Of a stretch of 64,000 nucleotides of DNA, positions 28,003 through 44,769 are shown one piece after another. Positions within the stretch are counted from its first letter, which is position 1. Every line of letters begins with the position of its first letter. Made by a program: the position numbers and the translations under genes. Source of the stretch: an uncultured Desulfurococcaceae archaeon (GTDB lineage Archaea; Thermoproteota; Thermoprotei_A; Sulfolobales; NBVN01). The stretch covers positions 313,595 to 377,594 of the forward strand of contig CAZXJO010000001.1 of the NCBI GenBank assembly GCA_964641155.1, given 5' to 3'. The notes beneath the pieces are model-generated. The model saw only the letters and a list, made by a program, of their open reading frames with translations, searched no databases and was not told where the DNA came from.

Positions 28003-28106
28003 TGGAGCCGCCGCCGGGATTTGAACCCGGGACCTCCGCCTTACCAGGGCGGCGCCTAGTGTTTCGGCGTGGTACGCCGAAAGTCCACCCGCTGAGCTAC
28101 GGCGGC
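28003..28106 (-). tRNA. tRNA-Thr(GGT) with a 28-nt non-canonical intron in the D stem (28056-28083); CCA encoded
   Basis: Removing CTTTCGGCGTACCACGCCGAAACACTAG restores GCTC/GAGC and CCGCC-CTGGTAA-GGCGG. The junctions form a bulge-helix-bulge. Confidence 0.95.
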
Positions 28107-42620: not shown

Positions 42621-42710
42621 TGCCGCCGCGGGGATTTGAACCCCGGACCTCCGGATCTCCCAGATGGGCCGTATGAGTCCGGCGCTCTGACCAGACTAAG
42701 CTACGGCGGC
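42621..42710 (-). tRNA. tRNA-Met(CAT), elongator type, with a 15-nt canonical 37/38 intron (42657-42671)
   Basis: GCCGCCG/CGGCGGC acceptor, CCGGA-CTCATA[intron]A-TCCGG; the intron TGGG pairs with CTCA to form a BHB. Confidence 0.95.
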
Positions 42711-42923: not shown

Positions 42924-43047
42924 ACATTTGATAGTACTTCAGTGGTTTTTAAGTGTTAATCAATTTCAGCTTTCGCTTAGAACATATGTCCTCAGCCACC
43001 TTATCCCCTGGGTAACCTTTCAGAGGTTGGGGAATGGGTGAAGTTAG

Positions 43048-43160
43048 TGGTAGCCGGGCGGGGATTCGAACCCCGGTCACGGGGGTTCCCCAACAATTCC
43101 AGATTCGGGGATAGCCCTTAGCTACCTGCCCCGCATCCTTGACCGCTAGACGACCCGGCT
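43048..43160 (-). tRNA. tRNA-Gln(CTG) with two introns: 24 nt at 32/33 (43104-43127) and 13 nt at 37/38 (43086-43098); CCA encoded
   Basis: AGCCGGG/CCCGGCT acceptor. Removing both inserts gives CGGGG-CTCTGGC-CCCCG, and both junction pairs fit bulge-helix-bulge geometry. Confidence 0.92.
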
Positions 43161-43272
43161 TCAATTAAATTATATCGAAGTTCGATTATTAAGTTTTAAC
43201 GTCGAGTTTGATTGCTAAGTCCTAACATCAAGTTTAATTATTAAGCTTTGATGTTAAGTACCTCAGGGATAG

Positions 43273-44769
43273 ATGATGTCATGGGTTGACGAGTACGTTA
43301 AGACTCTTTTCACCTTAAGAGATAGCGAGCTGTACGTAGTTGCTTCAGGACTAACCACGTCAGGTCCAGCACACATGGGTACGATAATGGAGCTTTTAAT
43401 ACCTTACACAGTATCTAAGGCTATTAAGACGCACGGCCGGAAGTCCTACTTCATATTCATAGCTGACACTATGGACTCCTTAGACAGCATACCCTCGCAA
43501 CTCGCCACGTTCTCGGAGCTGAGGGAGTTCCTCGGGATGCCGTTGTGTAAGGTCTTAGACCCGTACGGGTGTCATGATAGTTACGGGTACCACTTCCTTG
43601 ACGAGGTATTGGGTCTGATGAAGAAGCTCGCGATCGAGTGCGACGAGGTTCTAACAGCTGACAAACTATACCTCGAGGGTTGGTACGACGACTATGCAAG
43701 GCTTTTCTTCAACAGATTGGATGAAGTTAGGAACGTCTTAGAGACAACATCGTTTAGGAAGTTACCTCCAAATTGGTTAGGGATCGTCAAACCCATATGC
43801 GGTAGGTGCGGTAGGAACGACAGCACCTCCGTCACGTCATTCCATGACGACGTCATAACGTATGAGTGCGGTAGTTGCGGTTTCAAAGGCAGCATGCATT
43901 TAGAAGACCGTAAGTGGAAGCTCCTTTGGAGACTTGATTGGCCGTCAAGGCAGGACTTCCTCGGCGTTGACGTTGAAGGTGGTGGCGTCGACCACTTCAC
44001 CAAGGGGGGCTCTTGGGACACTGCGACTGAGATCCATAGGAAGATATTCGGTAAAGAACCCCCTGTGGGCTTCAAGTTCGGCTTCGTCCTCATAGAGGGT
44101 AAGAAGATGAGTAAAAGTAAGGGTTTGGGGTCGCTCTCAGATATCATGAGGTTCGTACACCCTGCCGTAATCAAGTATTTCCTACTAAAACATGATTTGG
44201 AGGAGAACAGGAACTTAAGAATGGACCCTAAGTTCCTCTTATCGCTCTACGAGGAATACAAATTGGTGGGTGATGGGAAGTATCAGGATGTGAAGCAGCT
44301 TAGGGCTTGGGAGTTAAGCGGTGGGGTTAGGTGGAACACCTCATTCGGTGAGCTACTGGTATACTACCAGATATATAAGGATTGGGAAACTATTTCAGGG
44401 TTGACTAAGGATTACGAATCCGTCGCTGAGCTGAAATCATATGTGGAGGAATGGATTAAGAATAACTTACTACCAGACGAGTACGATGTCCAACTCAGGC
44501 CGTCACCACCACCCCCCTCCACTGAGGACCTAATACTGGAATTATCTGAGTCGTTAGATGAAAGTATGAGCGATGTTGACATCCACAATAAGATTTACGA
44601 AATATCTAGGAGTAAGGGGAAGGACCCTTCAGAGCTCTTCAAAGCAATCTACTTAATGCTTTTCGGCAAGCCTAAGGGGCCTAAGCTGGGTAGGTTCATT
44701 AAGGTATTAGGTGTTAATCGATTTAAGAACATCGTGAGGGAGGTTCTCAACTCCCCGAAGAATCTGTGA
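43273..44769 (+). CDS. lysS: Lysine--tRNA ligase, class I
   Basis: SGLTTSGPAHMG (HIGH-like), D.MDSL, KL.WRLDWP.R, KKMSKSKG, C-terminal G.PKGPKLG. Confidence 0.96.
   Translation: MMSWVDEYVKTLFTLRDSELYVVASGLTTSGPAHMGTIMELLIPYTVSKAIKTHGRKSYFIFIADTMDSLDSIPSQLATFSELREFLGMPLCKVLDPYGCHDSYGYHFLDEVLGLMKKLAIECDEVLTADKLYLEGWYDDYARLFFNRLDEVRNVLETTSFRKLPPNWLGIVKPICGRCGRNDSTSVTSFHDDVITYECGSCGFKGSMHLEDRKWKLLWRLDWPSRQDFLGVDVEGGGVDHFTKGGSWDTATEIHRKIFGKEPPVGFKFGFVLIEGKKMSKSKGLGSLSDIMRFVHPAVIKYFLLKHDLEENRNLRMDPKFLLSLYEEYKLVGDGKYQDVKQLRAWELSGGVRWNTSFGELLVYYQIYKDWETISGLTKDYESVAELKSYVEEWIKNNLLPDEYDVQLRPSPPPPSTEDLILELSESLDESMSDVDIHNKIYEISRSKGKDPSELFKAIYLMLFGKPKGPKLGRFIKVLGVNRFKNIVREVLNSPKNL

Follow-up and report, generated by a model that had tools for sequence, protein, structure and literature searches.

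Sequential removal of nested introns from tRNA precursors is already described (PMC3728597, PMC3978253, PMC8450103). [quoted passage not shown] 2007 (RNA 13:671), Sugahara et al. 2008 (MBE) and Tocchini-Valentini et al. 2009 (PNAS 106:20246). The crenarchaeal cases, as summarised in these papers and in PMC8450103, belong mostly to the Thermoproteales (Pyrobaculum, Thermofilum, Caldivirga) and have two close BHB introns, a second motif that arises after removal of the first intron and ligation of the exons, and relaxed motifs (hBH, HBh') for which a heterotetrameric EndA is expected. In the nuclear pre-tRNAs of Cyanidioschyzon merolae, too, the removal of several BHB introns from one precursor follows a reproducible sequence that ends with the 37/38 intron (PMC3728597). 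There, the motifs fold independently, and the order tracks their stability or position.

With these systems in mind, we analysed a tRNA-Gln(CUG) gene of 113 nt that lies on the minus strand of a 64,000-nt stretch of archaeal DNA, referred to as the window, and that is interrupted by two introns at standard positions 32/33 and 37/38. The gene resembles the nested crenarchaeal pre-tRNAs in each of the traits named above, including a predicted dependence of the second motif on removal of the first intron, and a heterotetrameric EndA would be expected here as well. A sequence-only reading of the window had noted that multi-intron tRNAs are best known from Thermoproteales; this agrees with the cases described, whereas the host of the present gene, judged by its relatives, is Desulfurococcales-like. 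Unlike in C. merolae, the order of removal would be imposed by mutually exclusive pairing. Altogether, we consider it likely that the gene encodes a functional tRNA-Gln(CUG) of a Desulfurococcales-like crenarchaeon and that its two BHB-type introns are spliced out by proteins, one always before the other.

Gene model and intron motifs

Once both introns are taken out, a 76-nt sequence remains that is called tRNA-Gln(ctg) by ARAGORN and in which the canonical cloverleaf is restored (Table 1). This spliced product is identical in 76 of 76 positions to intronless tRNA-Gln(CUG) genes of related MAGs (L034, L045, L073 and L119), and the same 76-nt sequence scores 57.5 bits with RF00005 in L034 and L045, the gathering score being 29. 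A shift of the intron 2 junctions by one base leads to a product without match among the 146 related loci listed. The anticodon loop C-U-CUG-G-C comprises 7 nt with U33 and a purine at position 37, as in the intronless orthologues, and tRNA-Gln(UUG) genes with the same body differ from the spliced product in one base only (C34/U34). Exon 1, which is identical in more than 100 of the Desulfurococcales-type tRNA-Gln genes listed, contains the acceptor 5' strand, the D arm, the anticodon-stem 5' strand CGGGG and C32. Exon 3 contributes C38, the anticodon-stem 3' strand CCCCG, the variable loop UGAC, the T arm, the acceptor 3' strand, A73 and CCA.

Table 1. Features of the tRNA-Gln(CUG) gene and its surroundings, in positions of the window
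Feature	Position	Strand	Remarks
tRNA-Gln(CUG) gene, two introns	43048..43160	-	113 nt; spliced product is ARAGORN tRNA-Gln(ctg)
Exon 1	43128..43160	-	33 nt, standard positions 1-32; AGCCGGGTCGTCTAGCGGTCAAGGATGCGGGGC
Intron 1	43104..43127	-	24 nt, at 32/33; AGGTAGCTAAGGGCTATCCCCGAA; HBh'-type BHB motif
Exon 2	43099..43103	-	5 nt, TCTGG (U33 C34 U35 G36 G37), entire anticodon CUG
Intron 2	43086..43098	-	13 nt, at 37/38; AATTGTTGGGGAA; hBH (BHL)-type motif
Exon 3	43048..43085	-	38 nt, C38 to A73 plus CCA; CCCCCGTGACCGGGGTTCGAATCCCCGCCCGGCTACCA
T-loop motif	43062-43072	-	GGTTCGAATCC; inside exon 3
Encoded CCA	43048-43050	-	
Central helix H1, 5' strand	43130..43133	-	CGGG, C27-G30 of anticodon stem; pairs with CCCG
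Central helix H1, 3' strand	43106..43109	-	CCCG near intron 1 3' end, followed by bulge AA|U33
Inner helix h' of intron 1 with loop	43110..43126	-	GGTAGC 43126-43121 / GCTATC 43115-43110
Central helix H2, 3' strand	43088..43091	-	GGGG, followed by bulge AA|C38
Promoter-like element	43186..43199	-	TTAAAACTTAATAA; A-rich BRE-like plus TATA-like box, -39 to -26 from mature 5' end
5S rRNA	42920-42802	-	downstream of tRNA-Gln, same strand
tRNA-Met(CAU), Met or Ile2	42621-42710	-	canonical 15-nt 37/38 intron; downstream of 5S rRNA
Class I lysyl-tRNA synthetase	43273-44769		divergent; upstream of tRNA-Gln
tRNA-Thr(GGU)	28006-28106	-	28-nt non-canonical intron 28056-28083 at 23/24, D stem

Related loci were collected by scanning GTDB species genomes with a degenerate exon-1 pattern, which gave at least 119 loci, and by scanning metagenomes for exon 1 followed by 'AG', which added 27 loci. 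Nearly all of the at least 119 loci listed come from Desulfurococcales, Acidilobaceae, Pyrodictiaceae or Sulfolobales-labelled MAGs, and the tRNA-Gln body is almost the same throughout. The source run of the window, the subsurface metagenome X1, also provides an independent 108-nt Logan unitig, which spans positions 43056-43163 with 0 differences, both introns included. In the same run, word depth across 43036-43170 amounts to 140-395x at the tRNA-Gln exons and ~10x at introns and flanks; it follows that the tRNA-Gln exons are the same in many co-occurring organisms and that the introns are specific to lineages.

The gene model is as secure as sequence analysis allows, and the agreement goes far past anything that chance could produce. 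The identity as tRNA-Gln(CTG), the positions of both introns and the 5-nt anticodon exon, all proposed by the sequence-only reading, are borne out by intronless orthologues that are identical to the spliced product and by covariation within the intron family. Other architectures were discarded: all three exons are collinear within 113 nt, which argues against a split (trans-spliced) or permuted gene at 43048-43160, and a self-splicing group I intron would need a core of more than ~200 nt with P1-P9, whereas the introns measure 24 and 13 nt and gave no Rfam intron match.

Intron 1 has a BHB-type motif that borrows part of the anticodon stem. Its helix CGGG/CCCG, the bulges GC|A (G31-C32|A) on the 5' side and AA|U33 on the 3' side, and the inner helix GGTAGC/GCTATC had been anticipated, and each of these elements is found on the minus strand. 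The inner helix h' comprises 6-7 bp. Since the outer helix consists of at most one pair (G26-C34), the motif is of the HBh' type in Marck-Grosjean terms, and the junctions of intron 1 match this accepted relaxed BHB form. Within the full pre-tRNA, H1 is predicted with a pair probability of 0.99 at 37 C and 0.84 at 80 C.

Introns at 32/33 form a family. Among the matches listed, they occur in 27 genes of Desulfurococcales-like archaea that represent 21 distinct intron combinations (loci L004, L022, L076, L082 and L121-L146, from public MAGs and metagenomes); 16 of the 21 distinct genes also have a 37/38 intron (8 CUG, 8 UUG), and five have the 32/33 intron alone. The frame GC|A ... CCCG A(A/G/C)|U is invariant in 21 of the 21 distinct members listed, with the inner hairpin abutting both bulges. 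The relatives thus share with the window the exons, the intron position, the frame G31-C32|A, the hairpin, CCCG and A-N|U33, whereas the intron sequences themselves differ and the lengths range from 16 to 149 nt, with ~1.75 kb in L125. In these 21 distinct matches, the mean length of the inner helix is 6.7 bp in register and at most 2 bp once the 3' anchor has been moved by 1-3 nt. In alignment A1, which holds 17 distinct, loop-trimmed 32/33 introns, 95.4% of the inner-helix cells are paired compared to 80.9% in shuffles, a value that 0 of 500 shuffles reach; 25 cells are changed on both sides, and slid registers are at most 56% paired. H1, by comparison, does not vary among the 21 family members listed; as it is fixed by the exon, it says nothing about covariation.

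The canonical archaeal 37/38 tRNA intron is, in the 2003 nomenclature of Marck and Grosjean, reportedly of the hBHBh' form. Intron 2 is like it in that the anticodon stem serves as outer helix and nucleotides 32-35 pair with the intron, and differs from it in that h' is absent and that, in the primary transcript, the other intron splits the central helix on its 5' strand. The GGGG of H2 pairs with C32 (43128) and U33-C34-U35 (43103-43101), giving CUCU/GGGG. Intron 2 has no real inner helix, so that a 9-nt hairpin loop holds the 5' cut site GG|A. What had been suggested for this intron hence stands in part: CUCU/GGGG, GG|A and AA|C are present, whereas the place of a closed 3-nt bulge at the 5' site is taken by the loop. 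In this shape, intron 2 matches the accepted relaxed BHB form hBH, with the anticodon stem as h, the bulge AA|C, CUCU/GGGG as H and the 5' site in the loop. As there is no inner helix, the motif depends on the anticodon stem, the bulge AA|C38 and the 4-bp helix.

The pairing scheme of intron 2 extends to a larger set of genes. Taking as H2 partners of nucleotides 32-35 the four intron bases before the last two intron bases, we found that the four pairs (C32, U33, N34 and U35) form in 68 of the 68 distinct 37/38-intron genes among the matches listed. In these 68 genes, the partner of nucleotide 34 covaries with the anticodon (C:G in 33, U:A in 26 and U:G in 9), and the 37/38 introns are 13-175 nt long, which places the 13 nt of the window at the short end. 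Compared to the 32/33-family relatives listed, too, intron 2 of the window is among the shortest.

Order of intron removal

In the primary transcript, the 5' strand of H2 (C32 | U33-C34-U35) is interrupted by intron 1, which sits between C32 and U33; as the sequence-only reading had stated, these two nucleotides become contiguous only once intron 1 is gone. Furthermore, H1 occupies C27-G30, and the intron-2 motif requires the same nucleotides for the anticodon stem, which is its outer helix. Because the H2 strand is split and the 5' strand of the anticodon stem is borrowed, the 32/33 and 37/38 motifs are mutually exclusive. As long as intron 1 is present, H2 has a pair probability of 0.00 in the window's gene and does not exceed 0.04 in any of the 16 double-intron genes listed; this holds at 37 C and 80 C alike and in either sequence context.

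For the RNA from which intron 1 has been spliced, unconstrained folding was set aside; it gave low probabilities, since the model lets the anticodon stem mispair with the T stem, to which it is identical in sequence. We thus compared ensembles from constrained folding with the acceptor, D and T stems fixed, the nearest-neighbour model being poor on a full tRNA. Forcing the intron-1 motif in the precursor costs +1.8 kcal/mol at 37 C (+2.6 at 80 C). For the intron-2 motif, the cost is +12.4 kcal/mol at 37 C (+10.3 at 80 C) with intron 1 in place, and +1.7 kcal/mol at 37 C (+3.2 at 80 C) with intron 1 removed. In silico, the later motif is hence blocked until the earlier intron has been removed, as in the nested pre-tRNAs. 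Removal of the 32/33 intron first and the 37/38 intron second is well supported by these computations. The ordered splicing that had been proposed before follows from the geometry of the gene and is backed by constrained folding and pair probabilities, and it stays a prediction for the cell. Reads of the homologous double-intron gene L082 numbered 0 in three large hot-spring metatranscriptomes and one assembled metatranscriptome linked to it.

In the mechanism that we propose, CCCG of intron 1 would pair in the primary transcript with C27-G30, the future 5' strand of the anticodon stem, and the resulting 4-bp helix, with bulges G31-C32|A and A-A|U33 and stacked on the 6-7 bp intron hairpin, would constitute the HBh' motif. 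Both bulges would be cut by the splicing endonuclease, which is expected to be of the broad-specificity (alpha-beta)2 type of Crenarchaeota, given the affiliation of the host (PMC4090602, PMC5829648); because the outer helix has at most one base pair, cleavage of intron 1 would depend on such a relaxed-specificity enzyme. An RtcB-type ligase would then join C32 to U33. Only after this removal of intron 1 could CGGGG pair with CCCCG (39-43) to give the anticodon stem, and only then could the contiguous C32-U33-C34-U35 pair with GGGG of intron 2. The second motif (hBH) would consist of the anticodon stem, the bulge A-A|C38 and the 4-bp helix, with the 5' cut after G37 in the loop, and a second cut-and-join would complete the 76-nt tRNA. 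As the two motifs cannot coexist, at no time would both ends of the 5-nt anticodon exon be free. Simultaneous cutting of both introns would presumably release and lose this exon, a loss that the exclusion would prevent.

The gene and its introns could also be as described while the order is not obligatory, that is, a relaxed endonuclease would also cut intron 2, or its 3' site, in the unprocessed precursor, such that both intermediates occur. Crenarchaeal (alpha-beta)2 enzymes indeed cut motifs with one proper bulge only (PMC3241643, PMC5829648, PMC4090602), and in the anticodon-arm-only context the anticodon stem, and not H1, dominates the predicted ensemble. Moreover, intron 1 ends in C (..GAC|U) in five relatives, including L123, L126, L138 and L140, several of which have an inner helix in intron 2; such a C could take the place of C32, so that the order may be looser in these relatives and may not hold strictly across the whole 32/33 family. 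In the window, however, intron 1 ends in A, which does not pair with the G opposite C32, and intron 2 relies wholly on the anticodon stem and a contiguous 4-bp helix. The 10-12 kcal/mol that its motif costs with intron 1 in place, and the loss of the freed anticodon exon if both introns were cut together, speak against this alternative as well. We thus regard a non-obligatory order as unlikely for the window's gene and favour removal of the 32/33 intron first.

Beyond a fixed order, the mutual exclusion of the motifs might be a maintained device and not a by-product, in that the anticodon stem has one of its strands covered by each intron, CGGG by intron 1 and the opposite strand by intron 2, which would enforce two-step folding. 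In constrained folding, GGGG of intron 2 is predicted to pair in the precursor with CCCC of 39-42. If the exclusion were maintained, it could gate modification of the anticodon loop, or it could break up the target sequence of mobile elements active at tRNA-Gln in this lineage; signs of such elements at related tRNA-Gln loci are introns that bear homing-endonuclease genes, introns of kilobase size and candidate split halves. The idea is speculative, and we hold it to be rather improbable.

Genomic context and detection of the gene

The order of tRNA-Gln, 5S rRNA and tRNA-Met recurs in relatives of the window. The nearest locus among the matches listed, L139, is syntenic, with a 5S rRNA that is 96.6% identical and ~70-76% DNA identity over 12 kb, and its tRNA-Gln gene has both introns (23 and 14 nt), the sequences of which are unlike those of 24 and 13 nt in the window. 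Other 5S-adjacent tRNA-Gln loci among the matches listed have the 32/33 intron only (L121, L134, L136), the 37/38 intron only (L030, L046) or none (L072), and it follows from these mixed states that the two introns have been gained or lost independently. The best protein identity of the window to any of the compared loci listed is ~59%. Upstream of the gene, amid flanks that diverge, TTAAAACTTAATAA is kept with unchanged spacing in the window, L139, L121, L134 and L136; the element resembles an archaeal BRE/TATA promoter and may serve as such. Together with the conserved gene order, it speaks for expression of the tRNA-Gln gene.

Two further tRNA genes of the window were inspected. The CAU tRNA downstream of the 5S rRNA has the anticodon loop CUCAUA|A and shares its acceptor stem GCCGCCG with the tRNA-Thr at 28106; ARAGORN lists it as 'tRNA-???' in default mode and as Ser(cga) in intron mode. 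The motif of the tRNA-Thr(GGU) intron consists of H = GGUG/CACU, bulges GA|C and AG|G, and an 8-bp inner helix. This gene is missed by ARAGORN in default mode and scores 54.7 bits in Rfam, and its spliced form is called tRNA-Thr(ggt). This second non-canonical intron in the window shows that the host routinely uses relaxed motifs.

ARAGORN in default mode made no tRNA-Gln call at 43048-43160, and Rfam at gathering thresholds likewise missed the unspliced gene in the window. In intron mode (-i), ARAGORN reports from the unspliced sequence a tRNA-Pro (ggg) i(34,34) with a single 34-nt intron. The expectation that standard finders would miss or mis-call the gene was hence correct for both programs. 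A permissive Rfam tmRNA match (16.6 bits) and mascRNA matches were dismissed, as they reflect only the acceptor/T-arm module. An essential tRNA thus escapes both ARAGORN and the Rfam tRNA model, and annotation without an iterative archaeal intron search would score the genome as lacking tRNA-Gln(CUG). tRNAscan-SE 2.0 repeats its intron search for closely nested introns (PMC8450103).

That the standard finders pass over the gene would also fit a decaying or redundant tRNA pseudogene, the insertions of which are left unspliced. Likewise, no RNA sequencing run matching the window sequence was found in a search of such runs, the genome being known here from the window alone. On the other hand, the exons are 100% identical to functional-looking intronless genes, both splicing motifs are intact, and the promoter-like box is conserved. 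The architecture is, moreover, kept with compensatory changes in 16 distinct genes listed, including that of the nearest syntenic relative, L139. Decay is therefore very unlikely, and we retain the reading of a functional gene that is probably expressed. The tRNA-Pro(GGG) with a 34-nt intron, put forward by ARAGORN -i alone, has next to no probability, as it requires a shifted anticodon stem with a C-A mismatch, shows no BHB at its junctions and yields a product that matches 0 of the 146 related loci listed, whereas the two-intron product copies known genes exactly and its A1-U72 pair with A73 suits archaeal tRNA-Gln.

Related tRNA-Gln loci and implications

Homing-endonuclease genes are well known in archaeal rRNA BHB introns. 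Among the tRNA-Gln loci related to that of the window, three tRNA-Gln(UUG) genes, L008 (gene start 4624, +), L105 (-) and L107 (gene start 3082, +), have 37/38 introns of ~700 nt that are closed by long GC-rich stems and contain an antisense ORF with two LAGLIDADG motifs (Pfam Hom_end / LAGLIDADG_3). By these motifs, each of the three is a homing-endonuclease gene within a tRNA BHB intron, an arrangement for which we found no report in the literature.

A still larger insertion is present in L125 (-, gene start 468), a tRNA-Gln(UUG) gene with an intron of ~1.75 kb at 32/33 in the same frame as intron 1 of the window. Its inner helix comprises ~20 bp, and its sense strand has an ORF of 543 aa without Pfam match. 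The 5' junction of L125 also occurs in L021, L120, L122, L127 and L133.

At several loci, positions 1-37 of tRNA-Gln are followed by a GC-rich tail (e.g. ACCTCGGCCACCGCCCCC). This type occurs twice in one MAG (L055 and L091) and twice on one contig (L002 and L115), and is also found in L065, L050, L060, L079 (Ignicoccus pacificus DSM 13166), L097 and L098. In one MAG, a CUG and a UUG 5' half have an identical 18-nt tail. No 3' half of these orphan 5' halves was found within 3-7.7 kb or in the loci listed. An origin as att sites of integrated elements was considered and rejected, the antisense neighbour in L065 and L091 being MoaC and not an integrase. The orphan 5' halves are candidates for trans-spliced split tRNA-Gln, possibly with one common 3' half. 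L096 (+, gene start 2194) has a tRNA-Gln(CUG) in two parts, 5' and 3', that are separated by 1.98 kb and encoded on one strand. The junction sequences are GC-rich and complementary, and two antisense cellular genes (PfkB kinase, DeoC-family aldolase) are located between the parts; by its sequence, this locus may be either a giant intron or an adjacent split tRNA. Lastly, five tRNA-Gln(UUG) genes (L018, L023, L024, L033, L114) read GGGGC-CTTGG-CCCCC, such that C33 replaces the near-universal U; L023, L024, L033 and L114 are Acidilobaceae/Acidilobus MAGs, and L018 is labelled Thermoproteota.

In summary, the tRNA-Gln(CUG) gene of the window leaves the current understanding of nested tRNA introns unchanged, and its 32/33 plus 37/38 layout is, by sequence comparison, already present in at least 16 distinct public tRNA-Gln genes. 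With a precursor of 113 nt and an anticodon exon of 5 nt, the gene offers a compact substrate on which crenarchaeal endonuclease and ligase could be studied acting on mutually exclusive motifs. Furthermore, its syntenic orthologues with no intron, the 32/33 intron only, the 37/38 intron only or both introns form a natural series for the gain and loss of tRNA introns.
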